DNA of 64,000 nucleotides, from assembly GCA_010015805.1 (NCBI GenBank), contig ML978122.1, positions 3,072,453 to 3,136,452 on the forward strand, in the 5' to 3' direction. The notes under the pieces were generated by a model, which saw only the letters and a program-made list of their open reading frames with translations, was not told where the DNA came from and did not search any database. The translations under genes and the position numbers were made by a program. This DNA is from Rhizodiscina lignyota. Its lineage: Eukaryota. Of the stretch, positions 6,990-31,019 are shown one piece after another (the first letter of the stretch is position 1; every line of letters begins with the position of its first letter).

Positions 6990-8969
6990 ATGACTAGCTA
7001 CCAGTTCTCATACACTGCAACAATGTGTGCCGCATGCCAGCGCATCTTCCAACTGGAAGACCCTTCCGAACCAGGCATCCATCATCTCAATGCAGAAGAC
7101 ATGTACGCAGCAGCCACCGCTGGGTGCTGGTATTGCTCTCGCCTGCTGCTTCGATGGTCCTCAAATGGCAAAGTTGACTTGAGAACGCAATCACTGCAGC
7201 CGTTCAGCAAATTTATATTGGATTCCAATTCTGTTGGTTTTTGCATGAATGACTCTACTAATCCAGAGGACCCGCAATGGCCTACCGATGAGTTCTACTG
7301 CGCTGGTCAGTCGAAATTTTTCGTATGAAGAATCATATCTTTCGTAATTTCAGTAGTGGTACTCATCCATATCATCAACGTAGATGGTTATGCGGCATTA
7401 CGTGATGTGCAAATTGATCCTAATACAGGCTCTTGCATGTCTCTTCGACGAGTTTCCAAGTGGTATGAGGAATGCACCCGAAATCATCTAGAATGTAACA
7501 ATCTAATCGCCATGGACTGGCAGCCGACACGACTATTAGATGTCCAGCATTCGGAGACGTCAGTTCGACTCTGGTTGCGGGACGACGGTGTGGCGTCAAG
7601 TTACATGACGCTTTCACATTGTTGGGGAGGCACACTGCCGCTTAAGTTAATAAACTCAAGGATCGCAGAGTTCCGAACAGGAATCGAGATCCAGCAACTC
7701 CCTCGAACGTTCATTGAGGCTGTGCATGTTGTACGCAAGCTTGGTGCCCGATTTCTTTGGATCGATGCCCTTTGCATTGTTCAGGATAGCGAAGATGATT
7801 GGAGACAAGAGTCACAACGGATGGGAAAGATCTACGCGAATAGCCTCCTCAACATCGCCGCCACGGCATCGCGTGACGGCTCAGGAGGTCTCTTTCGAAC
7901 CAGAGACCCGCACGTCGTGGAACCGTGCGAATTTACTCGTCGTTGGAACGACCGAAAAAGTGAGGTCACTGCTCTTTGCGAGAAAGATCTTTGGATCCGC
8001 GATGTGGAAGACGCGCCGCTGAATCGTCGCAGCTGGGTCATCCAAGAGAGATTCTTAGCCCCGCGGATCATTCATTTTGGGGAGACGCAGCTCTTTTGGG
8101 AATGTAAGCACTATGAAGCGTGTGAAACGTTTCCGGACGGGTTACCTGTCCCTGGGAGACAGTTCGATCCTTTCAAAGCTGACCTCGAAATACACAATCC
8201 CGTATTTGACGGGAGAGGAAGCAGCGAGTCAAAAGAAATTTACAGAAGGCTTGAGACTTGGCGTGGAATACTTAAGCGCTACACTACTTGCGGACTGAGC
8301 TATGAGAGGGACAAACTCGTCGCAATATCTGGTGTTGCTAGGAATCTTACTTCTGATGCGGACAACGATATGTATGTCGCTGGGTTGTGGCGTGACGACA
8401 TCGTCTCAGACCTGCTCTGGTCGACCGTTGGACATGATGAAAAAGATCGTTCTGGATACCACATGGCACAATCGTACAGAGCGCCTTCATGGTCATGGGC
8501 ATCGATCGACGCTAGTATTTCCTATGTGTACAGCGGATACAATCCGAAGCGTCTCACAGAGATTATCGCCATCAAGCTGCAGCACAAACACCCTGGAGAT
8601 CCCTTTGGTGAACTCGTCACTGCGTCTCTCACTATTCGTGGCCGCCTCGTTTTTGTGAAAGTGACTACTGGTTACCCCGGCGGTATCACAATATCGAGGA
8701 AGAAGAAGAAGCCTGTCGAAGTGGAACTTCATCCAGACGTAGGTTCGTTCGAAGAGGGTCGGATGGTGTTCTGCTTGTACGTTGCCCTGGATTCGCTTTC
8801 GGTGCCGCGTGTCCAAGGCCTAGTGCTCGATCATGCTCCCAATAAGCCGCAGGGCCATTACTTACGGCGTGGGTTCTTTCGGATCGACCAGTATGACCCT
8901 AAGGCAGTAGACTTTATCGATCATAAGTTTCACATCGAAGGGACACGAGATGAGCTAGTCATATTGTGA
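6990..8969 (+). CDS. HET (heterokaryon incompatibility) domain protein; exons 6990-7305, 7384-8969
   Basis: PTRLLDV, YMTLSHCWG, FLWIDALCIVQD, MGKIYANS..NIAA, LNRRSWVIQE, APSWSWAS motifs; GTCAGT...TAG intron restores frame with the Cys-rich first exon. Confidence 0.93.
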
Positions 8970-16870: not shown

Positions 16871-19282
16871 ATGGCTACAAAACAAGAAGACAAACCAGCA
16901 GCCTCGCCCGGCGTCCGCTTCAGCTCGCACGACGAAGAGATTGAGCCCACCGCGAGCTTGGAGCAGGTCGACACCATCACCGGCTCGGATAGGCGGGAGA
17001 GAGACGACATCGATCCTGAGGCTCAAGAGGAATTGAAGAACCTGACAATGACGCTGCAAAAGTCACGACAAAAGCAACGCGCTGAGAACTTTCATTTCGA
17101 GCCAGTTTCCCTTCCTGCTTCGAGGGTGAGTCATGCACATCGGCCTTGGCTCGGATTTTGTATTTGAAGCAGCTCGCTGAATGTTAAATCGCGCAGGTCC
17201 CGTCCAACTCCTCCGGCCAAACGCCAGCACACTCGAACAAAGCGTCTCCCAGGACCTCTCCGCCCGTCTCTGCCGCACACACACCCCCTCTCACTCCTGC
17301 TGCTTCCGGTGATCGTCCCTCCTCCTCCTACGTACAACAACATGATCGAAGATCTGTCACGGACGCTGGTCCGGTTACTCCACAAGACTCCCCACCAGCA
17401 AATGATAGTAGACCATCGGCTGCCGCTCAGGCGAGGATACCAAGAGGTGTCAGGCCAAGATCTATGGTAGACATGCCCGGACCAGTAGCAGCTCATCCAA
17501 AGCAAGGCCCTACTTTCACCCTTGGACCTGCTGGAGACTCTCTGCCTGGCTCACAAGAGGCAAGTCCTGCAGTCACTCCTGGCACGACAACTCCACCTGG
17601 TGTTGCTACTCCGGGCTCTCCGTTCAGTCGGCCGTTCACTCCTGCTGGCGATGCCAATGACCCATATGCTCGCGGCAAACGCCCACCGCAGGCAAAGAAT
17701 CTCGAAGGCATTGACCCTCGATTCGTCTTCACGGGAAGGGATCCTCGACGCAGCCATGTTTTCGGCAGCACCGGCTCATCTGCCTCGCTGCCTCGGTCTG
17801 CGGCTGGTAGCACTACCGACGTCAGCACCAAAGAGGACAAGCGGCGTTCTTTGTTCGGCGGCAATCACTCGGAACTCTCGGACCAGAAGCCGCACGGATC
17901 AATGTCTGAGCTCAAGCGCTTCTTCCGCCTCGGCGGCCATAAGAAGGACAAGGAGAAGCGAACTCGGTCGCCGGCACCTGCCTCGCGTACCGTGAGCAAG
18001 GCAGGCACCCGAACGCCGCCGTCGACCCCGGGTTCTGTCAGCCTTCCGTTTGCGGATGACCACGGCCTGCAGAGCAAATACGGCAAGTTTGGCAAGGTGC
18101 TTGGCTCTGGCGCTGGTGGTTCGGTGCGCCTCATGAAGAGGAGTAGTGATGGCGTCACGTTTGCTGTCAAGCAGTTCCGCGCTCGACACTCGTATGAGAC
18201 TGAGAAGGAGTACAGCAAGAAGGTCACTGCCGAGTTCTGTATCGGATCAACTCTCCATCATGGCAACATCATCGAGACCATGGATATCGTTCATGAGAAA
18301 GGCAGTTGGTATGAAGTCATGGAGTACGCACCATACGACCTGTTCGCAATCGTCATGACGGGCAAGATGTCGAGGGAAGAGGTTACATGCTGTACATTGC
18401 AGATCCTCAGTGGCGTGACGTATCTGCATGGCATGGGTCTAGCACATCGAGATCTGAAGCTCGACAACGTCGTCGTCAACGACCAGGGCATCATGAAGAT
18501 CATCGACTTTGGCAGCGCTGCTGTCTTCCGCTATCCCTTCGAGAATGAGCTTGTGCTCGCCAGTGGTATGTACGCTCTCTTCATTAGATACTGTTATTTC
18601 TAATATTCCTCTAGGTATCGTTGGTTCAGATCCCTACCTCGCCCCCGAAGTCTACGACCTCCCCAAATACGATCCTCAGCCAACCGACATCTGGTCCCTT
18701 GCCATCATCTTCTGCTGCATGACGCTTCGTCGCTTCCCTTGGAAAGCGCCTCGCCTCTCTGATAACTCCTACAAGCTCTTCGTTGCCGAGCCCGATGAAG
18801 ATACAAAGCGGCTCTCGGTCGCTTCCCGTGCTCCGCAGTCCGAACCAGCCTCACGTGCTACATCTGGCGACTCGGACTCCGGACATCACCACCATCATCA
18901 CCACCGACACTCCGACGATCAGACCCACAGCGCCTCCGCCCGGTCCGACCCAACGGTAGACAAGACCAATGGCGAGGCTAACGGCAACGCAAGTGCTGCT
19001 CGTCCCACCACCTCTGGCGGCAGCCAACAGCAACAACAACAGATCAAAGGCCCATGGCGCCTGCTCCGCCTTCTCCCTCGCGAGACGCGCCATATCATCG
19101 GCCGCATGCTCGAGATCGACCCGAAGAAACGCGCTACGCTCGACGAGATCCTCGCAGACAGGTGGGTTGCGAATAGTCTTGTCTGTCGTCAAGAAGAAGG
19201 AGGACAAGTCATCCGCGCGCCTGGACATGAGCATACGCTGGAGCCTGGATCGGGAGCCACACCCGCACCAAGTAAGAAGTAA
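16871..19282 (+). CDS. SAT4: HAL-family Ser/Thr kinase (Sat4/Hal4-like); exons 16871-17125, 17197-18565, 18615-19282
   Basis: [47 protein letters not shown] motifs; canonical introns keep frame. Confidence 0.92.
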
Positions 19283-21967: not shown

Positions 21968-23177
21968 TTATTTTCCGTTGGCCTGCGTATTGGTATCATA
22001 CGCTACCTTGCCCGCCTTCCTCGCCGCAATGCTAGCCGGATGCTTATATCTTGCACTGTACAGCCTCATTTTCTGCCATTGATCCGCGCTGATATCTTCA
22101 TACTTCTTTGGCCTGTCGGGTCCCCAGCATGTCGGGAACGTCTCAACCATGGTGTCCATCGTCGGAGTCAGGAAGAACGGCAGGCTGTACCGCTCCTTGC
22201 CCGTCTTGTTCACCACGCGGTGGACCGTGCTCACGAACTCGTCATTCGTTGCCCTCTCCAAGAAATCGCCCACGTTCACGACCAGCGTATTCGGCACAGG
22301 CACGGCGGACACCCAGTGCGCGTTCGCGTTGAGCACCTCCAATGCTGGGTCGGGCGTGAGCTGGTTGACCAGCGTGAACCAGGTGTAGTCCGCATGTGCG
22401 CCGATGCCCACGTCGTTCGACACTTCCTGCGGCGGGTAGCGTAGTAGGCGGCACGAGCTGTGTGGGTATCTGAGGTACTTGTCGAGATACAGTTCGTCAA
22501 GGTCCAGTGCCAAGGCGATCATGTGCACGAGCGTTTTGGAAAAGGCCAGAAGTGCGTTGCGGTATTCGTAGATGGTCTTGCGGAACTCGGGAAGTAGCTC
22601 GACGGGCGGCCATTGGTTACGGACCTGGCCTGGTGGGTAGATTTCCGGGTCGAGATCCTTGGGAGCATCCTGTTCTGGGTCCTTCGGGTCGGTGCCCATC
22701 AAGAATGCTTCCTTGAGATCTAGCTTATTGTTAGATAATAAACCGAGAGTGGTATTTGAAGATGACGAACGCACCTCCACGAGTAGTCTCATCGAGCTTT
22801 GTCTCTAGCAGTGCCTCGTAACCCATAATCGCCGGTGAGTTGTTGATGTGTAACTTCACCTTTTCCTCGGTCGGCAGCGCGAAGAACTGCTTGACGGCCT
22901 CCTTCGTCCTCTCCTGCAAGTCCTCTGGAATACCATGTCCCTTGGCGTACAGGAAGCCAACATTGCGGAACGCGTCTCCTACCTCCTTGGCAACACTCTT
23001 CCGGTCTTCAAGTGATGACGAAAAGGCCTTGGTGAAATCCACAGTCGGAATAGTCTCGAAAGTGTCCTTCATCTTGTCGCCCTTGAGCACGAGACGCTTG
23101 CCTCGGCCCTTGGCCGCGTGGAACGTGACATACTCAGGCCCGGTCTCAGTGACGGTTGCGATTGCGGATGGTGCCAT
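21968..23177 (-). CDS. 2-oxoglutarate/Fe(II) dioxygenase, IPNS/DIOX family; exons 23177-22775, 22719-21968
   Basis: IPTVDF, VGFLYAKGHGI, NQWP, RLLRYPP, HADY (HxD), HRV and RYS motifs. Confidence 0.93.
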
Positions 23178-23985
23178 ATTGACTTTTTGATGCTGCAATT
23201 GAAAGTGAACGGAAACGATAGAAGGAAAGATATATACCTACCACCTAATGACCAACAATATGAATGTAATGTAGATATCCGGAAGAGCGCTGCCGAGTCT
23301 ATGACCTTATCGAAATCGCCGCGTCGGAGAAGAGCGCGCAGGATGGTGATGCGGGGAGCTGCCGCAAGTGGCAACAGAGGGATCACCGCGTACTTATTCC
23401 GACATGCTCTTCTTGAGACATGGAAAGAGTTTTGGTTGTGTAATTTCACCCAAGGCTGAACAGTTCTCTTCTCCCGCTCGAACCGGTCGACACTGACGCG
23501 TTTGAACCGTTCGGGATCCACCTCGACGAATCTCCTCCACCTGCACAGGCTTGGCGCAAGTCAGTTGCAGAATGTTTGAGGCACTTCCTGGATACGATAT
23601 TTATTTCTCCGCGATATCCCAAAGGGCCCGCAAATATAGCTGGACTGTGCAGCAACGAAACATCTTGTCAGAGGCGCAATGTAGAGAGATGAGGCCTGAA
23701 TTGGCGCGCAAGGGGCTGAATTTATTGAAGCTACCGAAGAAGTGAACAGGCACGTTCAGGATTCCAGGAACTCAAAATATATCAGATGAATACAAGCCCT
23801 GAACGTAAGGTAGAAAAGGGGCTCTTGGGACGCCACACGTGCCAGGGTCGGCGATCGGTGAGCTCGGAGATTACGTCGCCCTCTGCATTCAATACTCTCC
23901 TATGAACGCCTTCGCTTCAAACTCCGTAGTCTCTCTTGAAAGGCGATCGCTTGTAGTGCCTCAAAACTCCAGAATGGTGTGCCAT

Positions 23986-25969
23986 TCAATATTCTGCTTC
24001 GACAGCACCATATTCTTTGCCGCCACATTCGAAGGTAAATACCATCCGCGCGCCTTCAATCTTGACAATCAGGTTAAAGTCTATTCGAAGATACCATCGT
24101 CCATCTGACGCTCGCTGCACCTTCTGCACCATGTCCTTGTCGACGACGCTCAAATCGATTTTGAGCAAACAGCATGTCTTGATTTCTGAATACCCGGTCA
24201 GCAGGTAAAGCAACTTCAAAAGGGCAGACCCGGCGCATACCTTTGGTAGAATGGACTGGAGCAGTGTCTGAAGCGCACATCTGAAGCATGTACATTTGCT
24301 TATATTCCTTCAGCTGCGGATCCAGTGAAAAGGTATTGTGAAACGGGAATTTGATGTGGCGGCTTCGTTTCAAGTCGTCATGCTTCGCCAGATCAGGCTC
24401 ACACTCTTCCTCAATATCGACGGCTAGACACATACCTTGTGGATATACCAGGCCAATGTCCTTATGCGATACACCTCCTCATACTTGTCCCAGAACTTCT
24501 CGTTCTCACGTCCTTTATCACGATAGTAATCCCATTCAGCGCCAGCCGACACACCGTAATGTCTCTCCGCAACACTGCTCACAACTAACGCTTCCTGAGG
24601 TAGTTTGCTAAGCACTGCGCCCCGAACGATCGCAGACCATCTACGATACTGATAAGCACTCTTGTAAACGTCAAGTATTACCAAACTTACGCATCATTTG
24701 GTTGTATGACTTGGATGTCTTTATGCGCAGCTACAACTGCGTCTCTGAGGTATGCATTTGCACCAAATCCTCCGACCAGGAAAATTGCTTTGATCTCGGC
24801 GCCTTTCGGATGTCCTTCCTGCAGTCGTTTGATACGTACTTGGGCGACTTGCCTCGCAATCAGCTTGTCAATGTCCTTGAACACTGGTTCGAATATGCCG
24901 TGCATTGCCTCCCCTGTCAGTGTCAACGTGCTCGCCTTGATGTACTTCAGTGGCTTGTGTTTGATCTTTGCCATCGTAAAGGTAATGTATTGATCATCAT
25001 CTTCCTTCGATCTGAAACCTGGTTTGATCACCTCATCGAACTGTTTCATTGCCAGCCGATATCCATTCGTTATCTTCAGATCCTGGAATGAACGCTCACC
25101 GACGGTATCCTTGATCCACTGTTCGAATCGTTTGTTGATAATCATTGACCCAGCAATGCCGCCTGTAGGTGGGACGAGTTCCTTGAGTTCAAGAGGGCGG
25201 AGCTTCAAAATTTCATAAGACACGAGGTCAACCGTGCCGCCACCGGCATCACAGATCGTAATGGCATCTCCTATACTGAGTCCATGATCCTTGAGGTCAT
25301 GTAGTGTTGACATTGCTGCGGCTTCCGGCTCCTTGATAAGCTGGATGGGACCAATCCCAGCATGACGGGCGGCTCGCAGAGTTGTATCTTTGGCCTTGTC
25401 GCTCCACACAGCGGGCACCGATATAACGAATTGCTTTGCCAGCGTCTCAAGATAGTGCTTGGGAACTTTCCGCTCTATTACATTCAGTGCATGCTCGTAT
25501 ATTGCCCCAATATAATCGGTCGCAATGTCTATTGGGGTTTGCCGAGTTTCTGGATTTCAGCCTTGGTCGCTCCAGCGCTCGTAGGGTCATAGAGTGGCCT
25601 GGTCTGGTCTGGATCAAGAAGGAGCTTTACTCCTTCAATTTTCTCCTCAACAGTGCGGTCGAGTTCATAACCCCATTTAAAGTTACCGTCAGTATCGTAT
25701 TTCAATATTGTTGGCGCCTTCGGTACGGTTCGTCCCACTGCCCCAGGCCACTCCGTCACGGAGTATACTTGGTCTGGTCTGGTTGTGAAAGCATATGCAA
25801 CTCTACTCCTTTCAGTTCCAGTGAATGTCCATCATAAGACAGCAACAATGACATACCCGCTGTATGTTGTGCCAAAATCAAGGCCAATAATCAGACGATC
25901 GGTATTCTCATTAGGCAAAATGCTCCGTATGCTTAGCGCACTGAGATTCTTTGATAACTCCTTCGCCAT
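23986..25969 (-). CDS. Atypical fungal Hsp70-like (HSPA12-type) ATPase, 5 exons, apparent 1-nt frameshift at ~25534-25537
   Basis: IIGLDFGTTYSG, SVPAVWSDKAK, EPEAAA, ICDAGGGTVDLVSY, FLVGGFGANAYL, WSAIVRGAV motifs; reading frame breaks at KLGKP. Confidence 0.88.
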
Positions 25970-26882
25970 CGTGGTATTCCGACCATTGCCAGGCTGAGAA
26001 ATAAAATTGAAACTGCTGAGAGACAAAGTGGGATATAATATGCACCGTCAACTGCTTAGCAAGGCTGAGAGAGCTACATCTTCGGTCTGCCGATCTGTGC
26101 CTGCATGGGCCTTCTATACGAGAAATCCAGAGCTGTGGTGCATTTTATCGCCTGGATCCAGAAGCTGGGCAGACGAGGCTGTCAGAGAGCAGGCTCCGCT
26201 ATGCATTGAAGAGCACGAGAGGGAATCTCCCATTCGGCACAACGGCAATGCCAGGACGCGACGAGCTGCAAGAAGGTCATTAGCTAGCTACAGGGTTTCG
26301 AGAATAGATTGCGATTGGCCTACTCTGTAAAATGCGCCTCATTCTCAGGAATAAGGCAACGAGGCAGCGGCGACGGTCCGCACCGCAAGCAAGGCTGGAA
26401 CTACTCCCTGCGGCCCGATAATATGTCCAGTCTTGCGTTATGACTTTCAAAGGGATAATAAAACGCCGACGTTTGCATCTGTCTGTGCCTAAGAGCTCTG
26501 GAGGGAAATTTGTGAGTTCAGTGCTGGCGTGACTTTCTGGTTGCGGAGTTGACCAATCAGCTAATCAAGTCACAGGGTAGCTTTCATCATTCGCGACTCA
26601 CTACTTTCATTTCGCAGTTTACTGTGTTGGCTAGCGCGGCTAGTGTGGACTTCGTTGATTCGTAACAGAGAGCGTACTTGATTCCTAGCTGAGCCGCATC
26701 TTGCAAAGCTGTCTAGTCCTACTCAGCCTGATGGAATGCGACAACTCTCCCCCACCCAGCATCGGATGAACTATGCTTAGCGTTTATCTATGAGACCTGC
26801 CTATAATTCGTTGGTATAGTATTCAACATTCTCCATACACGCTCATTATGCTGACACGACAGACAGCGCATCAGCCGACGTC

Positions 26883-28107
26883 ATGCAGCGTAAAATGGGC
26901 AAAAATTGGACTAGCGAGCAGCTCACCACGCTGAAACAGCTCGTTGCCGAAGCTGTTGAAGATGGTACCCGTAATGCGATTGAGACAGCTTTTGTTAAAG
27001 GACAACAATCTACCGCCAGTGTTGTCAAGCCATCATTGGCATCGTTTATGGAACTAGAGCAGCCAGATGTGCGTCGCATCATGCCTCTATTTCCAATCCG
27101 CACTCCTATATCCCTGCTGAGACATCAAAATTCTGACTAATTGAACAGGCGCTTAATCGAAATGAATCAAAAGCGGGAAACAAGACTCTAGAAGAAGAGA
27201 ATGAGCGATTGCGGCAAGAAATTCTCCAGTGGAAACAGAAAGACTTAGAAAAAGATTTAAAAATTACAAATCTTCACAAGATCATACAGGAGAGTTCAAC
27301 ATTAGATGACAACGCTCCAAACGATGATGACGTGGAGCGGCGATTCAGCGAGCTTCGAAACCGTATCCTACAAGTAGTGAAGAAACACTTTAGCAGAAAG
27401 TGGAGGAGACATGGCAGTTCGTCGTCTGCCACTATAGACGACTTATGGTCCATGGCCATAATCGCGGACGCCTTGTGGTCTAAGTTCTTCAGTCCCAAAG
27501 CGACGTGTTTCGGATTTAGTCCGCACTCGGATGAGTGCCTTGGAGGACTTGAGAACGAATTTGAGAATGTACTCGATGGTGAGTGACCCAGCCTAGGTAC
27601 GCGCACTAAAGGCTTAAATTTCCTAATCAATCAATTTGCACAGTACCTTTCGCCAGTGTCGTAGAATGGCGAGTGAGGGCCGTCCAACTTGCGGAGCTTT
27701 CTAAAATCGATGATGAGACAGCGTTCGGTAGTTCAACGCAGGAATTCGTTCGCAATCTTCTCACCAACCACCTTTTAGCCAAGCATCCACTAAAAGAACC
27801 GAATGCAGCAGTAGCAGCATTGACCGAGATACACGACAAAGCTTTCCGCCTGTCGTTGCTCTTCCGAGCAAACAAGACAGAGTACGTGTGGCTGCAGAAC
27901 CAGTCAGGGTCGATTGAGATTACGGAAGATCAGGTTGAAATTGTAGGAACCGCAGGATTCAGGAGCATAGGAGAAGCAAAGGGTCGATTCAAGATAGTCT
28001 TTGGTGCTGTCGGTAAAGCTGCGGCGCATGGTGGAAGATGTAAAGACGGCTTGTTCCTTCTGAGGAACGCGGAGATCATGCTGGGACCTTTCAATAACCT
28101 GACTTGA
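26883..28107 (+). CDS. Coiled-coil protein divergently paired with the Hsp70-like gene; exons 26883-27068, 27149-27578, 27644-28107
   Basis: Three exons joined in frame by GTGCGT/GTGAGT...CAG introns with CTAAT/CTGAC branch points; coiled coil then DDDVERRFSELRNRI; beta-rich C-terminus. Confidence 0.75.
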
Positions 28108-31019
28108 TCATCAGATGCTTCGGTAGAGTGTGTATATGTTGTTATTGTTGTTATTGTTGTTGTACAGCGTGGTTGGGGCCTTCGGCTAAGGAGGGAGGAA
28201 ACCTCCAGCTGCTCTGAGTGCAGTCTCAGTGCCTCAGAGGCTCACGTGACTTAGCCTGGCTGTGGCGGCTTACCTACCTATATGGTTAAGCAGACTTGGA
28301 GGGGAAAGCCACGCTTGGAACATGCTATATCGCAACTCTTCAACCGAGACAGCTGACAGCAAGGGAGTTATCATAGGGCTTACTCTATGCACGACTTCTC
28401 TAAACTAAGCCCTATTCAGCGGGGATCGGCCCATTACCTGTTTCCCGTACTCCGGTCTATGATCCTCGCTTCTCTTTCCAAATCATGACATCGAGGGCGA
28501 CCCTGGAAGTCTTAAAATCGACAACATAATACCTATGTCCACAGATCTACATGGGGCGTCAAACTCACAACAGGAAGGAGAGCAGCCGCTCTCCATTCAG
28601 CTTATTGTCCCGACTGCCGTGGAGCTCCGAATCCCCCGCATAGTTATATTGCCCCGTTGTCCAGATTGCCTCGTCCTTCGAGTTAAAAAAAGGATCATCG
28701 AGGCAGACGAAAGGATTACCCAAGTTCTATAACAGTTTGCATCCTTCTTTGATGAGTAGATGCCAGAGTAGATGTGGATAATGGTATGGTAAGGCTATCT
28801 TTCAATGTCAGAAATGATTTCTGTCTCCAGATTCTAAATACTTGTTTAGTAGGAAACAATGAAGCATCTGAATACGTCCATATCTCCGAGCTATCAACTT
28901 TTGAAAATCCATTTCTAAATCCATTTCTGCTGCACATATCCTTGAGCAAGTCTTTGAATGTGCAGGGGGCTCTTATCCTCATGTGCGATGTCAGATATTT
29001 GCTATTACGATTCCGTATTACCTTCACTGTCAGCTCTATAATTCCGTGTGAAACAGACAAACAGTTCCACAACATTCTACTAAGCATGCTCAATGTCGTC
29101 AGAGAGCCGGAAGCTCTATAAGGGCCCGCCCGCTCTTGAAATTCGAGTTACTTCTGTACAGCTCAAATACTGCAGTCCAGCTTCCAAGACCCGCAAGTAC
29201 AAATTGAAGTCATTGAGATTGATAAAGAATAAGAGACAGGATGGGCTTCTCAAAGATCGTCTCCGGCGCTCTGCTCGTTGCGTAAGTGTCGACACATGTC
29301 CGCTTTCAAATATATTGTATTGATTTTGCTGACTCCCTATCGAAGGTTTTTCGGTGTCCAAACAACAGCTCAGACGACATGCGGAACGGAAGGGTTCAGC
29401 GCCGCGGCTTGCCCGACGCCATTTAATCCTTGCTGCTCTTTCCTCTGCGCCGAGGCTCAGGTTCCGTTCCTCGTGTGCCACGAGACCTCTGTAACGGCTC
29501 TCGCAAGCTGCACCGCCTGCCCAACTGCCTAACTGGAGCACACCTCATCAACTGGATGCATCAATGAGGTGTTGGATATGTGATGGTATGAGAAGGTTGT
29601 GGTGCCGTCGTTGACTTTGGAACTTCACCTACATGTAAAGACAATTGCAGGGAGTACACGGGAGACGTCAATCATCGTGTATTTAAATTGCTGCATTCTT
29701 TCGTCCAGAAATGAAAGTTCAAAAAGCGGTTCAACCTCATCATCCCATGCCCTCTTCACTATTTCGCTTCACGTACTTCGTCCTAAACGTCGCTAATCGT
29801 TAGGGCGTCTCGTTGCGCGTGGTGGTAAGCATATCCAAATCGAGGTGCTCTGTTAGCCACTCATTATGCAGTAGTTCAAGTACTCATAGATGTGCTAGCA
29901 TAAGTTAATGCTCGGAGGCTGCGGTCAGACTTTAAAAACTGTTAATGTCAGAGCACGAGGAGAATCACCGTAGCAGATGTCATTGGAGAGAGAGAAATGA
30001 GAAAAGTATGTGCGCTACAGGTCACTCACCGTAGCATCGTTGACGTTACGAAGCACCTGAGCTGCGACTGGTAATTGCTTCCTCGAAACCTGCTCCGGCA
30101 TCAGGTGCAGCCACCTTTGATATGTGAGGAGCTCCATCAATTCTGTGCGACTTGAGGTTGTCCTGCCAGGGCGCTAGCGATGGGGCATAATTGACGCAAT
30201 AAATATCCCACGGCGCCAGCGATTCCACTAGCGTTTAACTAGGTTTAGCGTTAATTTTCCAGCAGGGATGATGTGAAACTGATAGACAGAGGCAAGTGAC
30301 CTCGACGAGTGGAAATGGAGAAGTAGTGCACTCTCTGGGAAACACTGAACAGCAATACAGTGGTACGCTCTGAAGAATGTATAACTGAGCTTTCAGAGAT
30401 ACTTTCGCTCACCTTGGGGTAGCTTCCTCAGATTTAGAGTCATGGACTGAAAGTCTTGAGCACATGAATGACATAGTCCACACTCCATTGCCATTATGAT
30501 TAGACACTATCAAACCAGTTTTGGGCTGCGGAACTTCTACGTGAGTACGAGCACTGTTCAGTGAACCACAAGTGCCGAGAACATCTCGAACAAGGCCGGC
30601 ATCTGGGTGCGACACTGAAGTGGCGTTCCCTTTCTGACGCGTGCTGGTAACGGGGTTCAGATTGCTATCATCCTAAAAGCGAAGCTATTACAAATTCTGT
30701 TCATCGGATGCACACGATCCTCCATCCTCATGTGTGCCTGCAGGCATCCCAGTCCGTTGCAGCAACCCATACCCCCCGCACAACAGAAACGACAACGAAC
30801 GCCAAAACTGGGTAAACAGGTGGTGGTATCGATAAGGAATACAGGAAGGGAACGCCAAACGCACAGGCTGGTTGGGTGTTGCCATGAATGGGCGTAAGCA
30901 CCCAAAGTGCGCGTCGAAGCAGCCGAACGTAAGTCTTCAGATCCTTGACAAGCGCCGGAATCTAGTGCTAGTGTCGTTCGCGAACACTGTACGCCTGGCG
31001 AAAAGTAGTAGGGGAAGTG

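Follow-up and report, generated by a model that had tools for sequence, protein, structure and literature searches.

Do the HSPA12-like ATPases of fungi have a dedicated cofactor of their own? The question is raised by a stretch of 64,000 nucleotides (nt) from Rhizodiscina lignyota (assembly GCA_010015805.1, contig ML978122.1, positions 3,072,453 to 3,136,452 of the forward strand; hereafter the window, in whose positions coordinates are given), where an HSPA12-like Hsp70 ATPase gene and a three-exon gene, here called the partner, stand head to head. The first-pass annotation of the window, made from its letters alone, had taken the partner for a cognate GrpE-like cofactor of the ATPase and the two genes for a unit. 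We propose, with a probability of roughly 45%, that the pair is a co-inherited fungal two-gene unit consisting of an HSPA12-like ATPase and a dedicated coiled-coil cofactor, which diverge from an interval of ~0.9 kb and work by a GrpE-like mechanism. The firmest part of this proposal is the unit itself, and we are highly confident that the pair is conserved and co-inherited in fungi.

Linkage and inheritance of the two genes

Recurrent linkage of partner homologues to Hsp70-like genes had been set beforehand as the refutation test of the proposed unit, and such linkage was found. With an alignment of the Hsp70-like family (A2), 80 metagenome loci were fetched with flanks of up to 10 kb, and their stop-to-stop fragments were searched with a profile of the partner family (alignment A1); dropping 10 near-duplicate loci left 70 distinct ones. 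Of 40 loci whose upstream flank measures at least 1500 base pairs (bp), 20 have a partner homologue immediately upstream, encoded on the opposite strand and 320–2245 bp away from where the Hsp70 match begins (17/34 after de-duplication); the counts are 18/35 (15/29) for flanks of at least 2500 bp and 16/28 (14/24) for at least 3500 bp. Four loci (L102, L103, L106 and L113) are near-identical at the protein level and, when counted once, give 14/31; one dropped locus (L148) had a partner match, and its kept twin (L146) is too short in its flank to show one. All upstream matches are on the strand opposite to the Hsp70-like gene, and 112 kb of proximal upstream sequence contained 17 matches, against 3 in the other 350 kb (Poisson P 5e-16). 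Downstream matches were found in 3 of 27 loci with a flank of at least 2500 bp (3/24 de-duplicated), all of them 4.2–5.6 kb away. Between the first aligned residues of the two proteins, 14 of 15 measured loci have 847–1552 bp; the window has 913 bp.

Two other arrangements were seen in the same loci. Three loci have no upstream partner and carry a partner-like gene downstream on the minus strand (L090, 9435–10106; L094, 17075–18358; L125, 7513–8355), which may be a loosened or rearranged pair. The Hsp70-like family also forms small clusters, as in L111 (2186–4584 and 9980–12509) and L143 (2149–4317 and 9968–12231), which have two Hsp70-like genes each, one per strand, and a single partner beside the second.

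Inheritance was followed in trees of both proteins. The Hsp70 tree was a quick LG+G4 tree of 48 rows that included 35 loci whose upstream flanks reach about 1.7 kb or more; L133 and L152, as short assemblies, were omitted. The window gene falls within a clade of 22 rows with support 100, where pairing holds for each of the 11 rows whose context is known, the remaining 11 being database proteins whose context is not visible. P0117 (FOXG_11731) also falls inside this paired clade. On this tree the pairing label requires 4 changes, versus a mean of 11.9 for shuffled labels, and 0 of 500 shuffles were as low. The partner tree (18 rows; L082 and L115 omitted as too short) repeats the Hsp70 groupings: the window with L117 (support 96), L143 with (L111, L148), P0039 with (L088, L083, L097, L139), L114 with (L136, L149), and the L102 group. 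Moreover, the two major Hsp70 clades each form one side of a branch of support 100 in the partner tree. Tree congruence, which had been suggested as a check, is therefore present at the level of shared groupings; since kin share labels, this agreement shows co-inheritance and not by itself co-evolution. Along these trees the partner has diverged at roughly threefold the rate of the ATPase (window–L117 path 2.21 versus 0.70).

Both families also occur in one gene model. When the partner profile was run against the 120 Hsp70-like proteins listed, it matched P0039 (Sclerotinia borealis SBOR_6503, 1072 residues). In this model a complete Hsp70-like protein continues on the same strand into a coiled coil and then a region resembling the partner at 682–976 (E-value 1.4e-12). 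The idea of a two-gene unit, put forward from a single locus, is thus upheld by the 17/34 loci, the 11/11 rows of the window clade, the congruent trees and this one model with both proteins.

The gene pair of the window and the ATPase family

The first-pass annotation had described an HSPA12-type Hsp70 gene and a three-exon gene diverging from an interval of ~910 bp, and it placed both genes correctly and gave nearly the exact spacing of 913 bp (Table 1). It had also quoted the C-terminus of the partner, RFKIVFGAVGKAAAHGGRCKDGLFLLRNAEIMLGPFNNLT, which is found in the translated gene. The three exons of the partner measure 186, 430 and 464 nt. Counted from its first ATG, the product has 359 residues; the public model P0001 (hypothetical protein NA57DRAFT_72511 of Rhizodiscina lignyota) begins at the second ATG, 26895, and has 355 residues, with splicing as here and 100% identity.

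Table 1. Positions of the gene pair, its shared interval and the predicted parts of the partner in the window
Feature	Position	Strand	Details
HSPA12-like Hsp70 ATPase gene	23986-25969	-	exons 25857-25969, 24691-25802, 24436-24640, 24241-24382, 23986-24185
Frameshift site in the ATPase gene	25529-25537	-	C4 run 25534-25537 one base short, followed by premature TAG 25529-25531
Divergent interval between the two start codons	25970-26882	.	913 bp
Partner gene	26883-28107	+	exons 26883-27068, 27149-27578, 27644-28107; introns GT..AG
Long helix of the partner, likely coiled coil	27149-27310	+	P0001 residues 59-112; AlphaFold2 model and coiled-coil matches
Helical region of the partner, seven helices	27323-27867	+	P0001 residues 117-276; AlphaFold2 model; split by intron 27579-27643
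Six-strand C-terminal beta region of the partner	27883-28083	+	P0001 residues 282-348; AlphaFold2 model

The introns of the ATPase gene (54, 50, 53 and 55 nt) are all GT..AG, and the gene reads as 590 residues with an X placed at a single frameshift. The frame changes at the C4 run, where eight aligned homologues read KLGKPP[IVA]D, requiring one extra base. A second frameshift near 24441 was considered and rejected: it is the 53-nt GT..AG intron, which the homologues and the public model imply as well, and across which the homologues read WYIH-K-HDDL uninterrupted. Assembly error was also rejected as the cause of the frame change. Logan contigs of X1, the sole public run containing the locus, which may come from the same sample as the genome assembly, have a word depth of 151 and show 0 differences and 0 gaps against window 23900–28130; because of this identity, the reads must have the missing base in common with the assembly.

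The public model P0002 (NA57DRAFT_53054, 519 residues) equals the present model minus 71 residues, which are spliced out around the frameshift by an extra GT..AG intron that spans it (25473–25687, minus strand). This intron looks like a repair made by the gene caller, because the 71 removed residues are conserved in all homologues, and the present reading corrects a public gene model whose frameshift was hidden behind an artificial intron. The frameshift in the Rhizodiscina ATPase copy is genuine and amounts to 1 nt, and the partner gene is intact. Hence the Rhizodiscina copy of the pair has probably been disabled recently, though the partner could instead be working with a paralogue, for example P0119.

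At the level of sequence, the ATPase gene carries an Hsp70-type nucleotide-binding domain. Pfam HSP70 (PF00012) matches at 24690–25556 on the minus strand (E 1.7e-9), which covers only a part of that domain. At E ≤ 1e-10 the family counts 3329 relatives out of 6398 candidates; almost all of the matches listed come from Pezizomycotina, and for several homologues the source gives the name ‘Heat shock 70 kDa protein 12A/12B’. A profile of 18 relatives, compared with solved structures, gave the DnaK nucleotide-binding domain 1dkg_D as best match (E 4.2e-14, DnaK residues 4–356), followed by other DnaK entries and mortalin. DnaK and mortalin both work with GrpE-type factors. The motifs DFGTTYSG, EPEAAA, DAGGGTVD and LVGGFG are conserved in the alignment, and the matches of the family to Pfam and PDB end at the nucleotide-binding part, at profile positions up to 338–369 of 599 and DnaK residues 4–356. 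Two very long Chaetomium proteins of this family, P0080 (1579 residues) and P0087 (1645 residues), also have PF11915, and their extra parts gave no match to the partner profile. A 2026 review (PMC13580251) calls the function of HspA12 unknown, and no report of a partner or cofactor of HSPA12-type Hsp70s was found in the literature, represented mostly by titles and the openings of abstracts.

The interval between the two start codons is presumed to be a bidirectional promoter. It contains 0 heat-shock elements (the whole window has 21, versus 18.75 expected), and its repeats are short and at chance level only. Among 16 pair intervals the 7- and 8-mers held in common were not clearly above shuffled sequence, and no shared motif was found. 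A simple repeat rich in TGT/TAT (28131–28200) follows immediately 3′ of the partner stop codon.

Three neighbouring features of the window were recorded. Just downstream of the ATPase gene, on the same strand, is a 2-oxoglutarate/Fe(II) (2OG-Fe(II)) oxygenase gene (21971–23237, minus; DIOX_N E 1.4e-23, 2OG-FeII_Oxy E 4.1e-20). A protein kinase domain extends over two overlapping frames at 17188–19279 on the plus strand (Pkinase E 2.1e-31 and 1.8e-11), which could reflect an intron or a frameshift. A HET (heterokaryon incompatibility) domain (PF06985, E 8.5e-33) is encoded in an open frame at 7329–8966 on the plus strand, ~15 kb from the pair, and no link to the pair was seen.

The partner family and its likeness to GrpE

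Judged by full-length similarity and common motifs, the partner is a member of a large fungal family (alignment A1). A phmmer search of 1.84 billion representatives gave 94 relatives (E ≤ 1e-3), of which 29 remain at E ≤ 1e-10; even the best reach an identity of only 33–34%, and many of the relatives cover residues 65–350. In the ESM Atlas the partner stands next to three clusters, in none of which a Pfam family is common; those of 90 and 4377 members are mostly from Ascomycota, and that of 67 members is mostly from Basidiomycota. No Pfam family was found for the partner in its three exons, in P0001 with 24 relatives, in 26 C-terminal fragments or among the commonest families of 92 members, and a homologue search with exon 3 returned the window's own protein only. 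The motifs of the family are LHKII (after the coiled coil), FGF, EWRV, ICxxAxxLAxLFRxSKxEYxWxQ, VFGGVxKG and LxKxxVxLGP. In titles and abstract openings, for the most part, no paper on this fungal family was found, and the head-to-head pair appears new.

An AlphaFold2 model of the partner, built from a 92-row alignment, has a mean predicted local distance difference test (pLDDT) score of 84.5 and a predicted template modelling (pTM) score of 0.71. It starts with a helix at residues 7–37 of P0001, and then follows the architecture that had been read from the sequence, i.e. a long coiled coil, a helical bundle and a C-terminal beta region. The beta region holds the most conserved motifs of the family (EYxWxQ, VFGGVxKG and LxKxxVxLGP). 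One relative, P0200 (616 residues), has a HET domain (PF06985, E 3.1e-12) N-terminal to a full partner-like region, and it is the only one of the 94 relatives on which HET was found. A role in stress or non-self response, which had been suggested as well, is only thinly backed by this one HET protein and by a GTPase domain, on a similar predicted fold, in one Basidiomycota cluster; the interval is free of heat-shock elements.

GrpE consists of a long N-terminal helix, a helical bundle and a compact C-terminal beta domain, and its dimer binds the nucleotide-binding domain of Hsp70 and speeds nucleotide release. A structure search with the whole partner model placed three GrpE chains (4ani_A, 1dkg_B and 9bls_B) at ranks 1–3 of 48,161 with non-significant scores, and Foldseek against PDB with the same model gave nothing at E ≤ 0.001, the best value being 0.25. 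A C-terminal sub-model, which is the last exon alone (153 residues, pLDDT 83.4), had GrpE at ranks 1–7, 9 and 20 in Foldseek, with a best E-value of 0.073 and template modelling (TM) scores of 0.2–0.3, again non-significant. In these alignments the last helix and beta region of the partner are superposed on the last bundle helix and beta domain of GrpE. A VIA wide search with the same sub-model gave helical hairpins only in its top 50. We therefore regard GrpE as the nearest solved architecture because it comes first in the structure searches, no score being significant. The GrpE resemblance, noticed at first by eye, holds in rank, as GrpE tops both lists; it does not extend to significant structural scores or to any signal in Pfam, PDB-profile or hhalign comparisons.

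By language-model features, the named Atlas clusters nearest to residues 115–355 are GIL1_IRKI_C (0.84, 0.81 and 0.81) and MIEAP (0.79, or 0.81 in another comparison), values below 0.9 and at chance level by the tool's own calibration. Neither MIEAP (PF16026) nor GIL1_IRKI_C (PF24994) was found in the 26 C-terminal fragments (E ≤ 10) or among the 25 commonest families of the 92 members (E ≤ 1). A complex prediction of P0001 residues 58–355 with residues 40–608 of P0004, an Hsp70-like stand-in, gave an interaction prediction score from aligned errors (ipSAE) of 0.01 in both runs, which were made without own alignments or controls, and it speaks neither for nor against binding.

A parallel arrangement was found in bacteria. 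A further 80 loci were fetched with A2, 12 of them with long HSPA12-like matches, and in 10/12 actinobacterial loci (L001, L003–L010 and L012) an open reading frame for a coiled-coil protein of 250–290 residues is located downstream of the HSPA12-like gene on the same strand. The conserved end of this bacterial partner is W.F...PGY..GR...VFT, and no Pfam family, including GrpE, MIEAP and GIL1_IRKI_C, was found in it. Its profile matched GrpE in hhalign with a probability of 54% (E 1.3e-4, 95 columns). In 401 sampled Actinomycetota genomes the same profile gave 7 matches, namely itself, 2 canonical GrpE proteins (PF01025 E 1e-40) and 4 short and weak ones, and a protein homologue search with its alignment (A3) gave 5 close relatives only. 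The fungal and bacterial partner profiles are co-linear over the last helix and strands, with probabilities of 10%, 13% and 9% (E 0.0031, 0.0021 and 0.0039) in three comparisons that share data. A chain from the fungal partner over the bacterial partner to GrpE is suggestive at the level of these profiles. In two bacterial genomes with HSPA12-like genes, G004 and G005, extra divergent GrpE genes were seen in addition to the canonical one (L166, L167 and L168; PF01025 E 3.5e-20, 2.2e-7 and 8.6e-11).

In the mechanism that we propose, the cofactor would dimerise via its long helix, its C-terminal helix-plus-beta module would dock on the nucleotide-binding domain of the ATPase, and it would tune the nucleotide cycle of the ATPase in the manner of GrpE. 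The steps differ in strength. That the partner is a direct cofactor which physically binds the ATPase seems probable to us, if not by a wide measure, and a GrpE-type exchange role, the best single mechanism that we can name, is put forward tentatively.

Several results weigh against the GrpE-like cofactor. In sequence comparison, hhalign of the partner against an 8-row GrpE alignment gave probabilities of 0.4%, 1.3% (on the coiled coil only) and 0.2%. PF01025 was absent from the three partner exons, from P0001 with 24 relatives and from 26 C-terminal fragments at E ≤ 10, and it was not among the 25 commonest Pfam families of 92 members at E ≤ 1. A PDB profile search with A1 gave 55 rows at E ≤ 10, mostly coiled coils and none of them GrpE. 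In fold, GrpE contributes two helices to its bundle, and the seven-helix region of the partner is far larger. In the bacterial material, the fungal partner profile had no match at E ≤ 1 in the open reading frames of the 80 bacterial loci, and the fungal C-terminal profile (A6) gave 2 matches in the 401 Actinomycetota genomes, with E-values of 0.07–0.08, which are not GrpE and of which neither extends over the beta region. As for the unit, the ATPase gene of the window is itself frameshifted, and about half of the sampled Hsp70-like genes are without a nearby partner; in these unpaired loci the partner profile found nothing convincing even at E ≤ 10, and no other recurrent upstream family was found.

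Alternative readings and known systems

The alternative that survives best denies the partner an exchange role and makes it an adaptor, scaffold or client dedicated to the ATPase. Its core (residues 115–351) would then be a docking or signalling module of its own, which links the ATPase to effectors or targets and is possibly related to the C-terminal domains of MIEAP and GIL1/IRKI. Such a role agrees with the fusion of the core to another signalling part in P0200, although HET was seen in only that one of the 94 relatives, and with an Atlas cluster of 71 Basidiomycota G-domain proteins that aligns to residues 115–351 with a TM score of 0.70 by query (0.52 in another comparison). The nearest named feature clusters point to the same relatives, but at scores that are at chance level, and the C-terminal fragments and commonest families of members gave no Pfam match to either. 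The non-significant GrpE scores and the threefold faster evolution of the partner would also be consistent with an adaptor, but it is GrpE, and no adaptor, that tops both structure lists. We consider this reading a doubtful one that nevertheless deserves attention.

Less probable still, and in our view a minor contender, is that the genes are kept together for co-regulation only, by a shared bidirectional promoter and for instance in one pathway, with products that do not touch. The conserved head-to-head order and the similar spacing in 14/15 loci are what such a promoter would give, and there is no evidence of contact between the proteins. However, a shared promoter does not explain P0039, which joins both families in tandem on one strand; bacteria hold the analogous pair as adjacent genes on the same strand; the trees are congruent across deep paralogous clades; and the intervals have no common sequence motif. 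Chance adjacency, in which the partner is an unrelated neighbour, is refuted: some chance neighbours must exist as both families are large in Ascomycota, but the match density in the remainder of these loci would give ~1 proximal upstream match where 17 were counted, every one of the 17 is on the opposite strand, and the rows of known context in the window clade are paired without exception in congruent trees.

The GrpE-like two-gene unit could also be a part of something wider. It is conceivable, if rather improbable, that the fungal and bacterial partners and the C-terminal domains of animal MIEAP and plant GIL1/IRKI all derive from the GrpE helix-plus-beta module and make up a single ancient class of cofactors, combining docking and exchange, that serves Hsp70-like ATPases without a lid. 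If this were true, the orphan HSPA12 family would have had a dedicated partner since before eukaryotes, and the module would have been wired in fungi to effectors of the death or immune type, as in the HET and GTPase fusions. Apart from such descent, HSPA12-type Hsp70s occur widely and show expansions in several lineages, and a conserved, co-inherited partner offers a concrete handle on the family. Moreover, a large fungal family without a Pfam model gains a likely role, and pairing in fungi as well as in bacteria argues for an old and general module of an Hsp70-like protein and its partner.

Among known systems, the fungal ATPase resembles HSPA12A and HSPA12B in that its Hsp70 signature is confined to the nucleotide-binding domain and its homologues are named after them by their sources, names on which the HSPA12 label rests. 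MIEAP and GIL1/IRKI are coiled-coil proteins with a conserved C-terminal domain and provide the nearest named feature clusters of the partner (0.79–0.84); they were compared by feature scores and Pfam alone, with scores below the 0.9 bar and no Pfam match. The actinobacterial HSPA12-like pair is alike in that a coiled-coil protein whose C-terminal module is conserved accompanies an atypical Hsp70-like ATPase, whereas the fungal partner is longer, has a bigger helical region, stands head to head with its ATPase and is only marginally alignable with the bacterial one.

The comparison on which our proposal is modelled is that with DnaK–GrpE and mitochondrial Hsp70–GrpEL1/Mge1. The fungal partner differs from GrpE in being without sequence or profile similarity to it, in structural scores that are non-significant, and in a much larger helical region (160 residues, seven helices); the fungal ATPase matches Hsp70 models over the nucleotide-binding part only, and the fungal genes are arranged head to head and not in an operon. 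On the side of likeness, GrpE is the nearest solved structure of the partner and the DnaK nucleotide-binding domain is the nearest of the ATPase, and what these systems share is a genetic tie between the Hsp70-type ATPase and a protein that combines a long helix with more helices and, at its C-terminus, a small beta domain.

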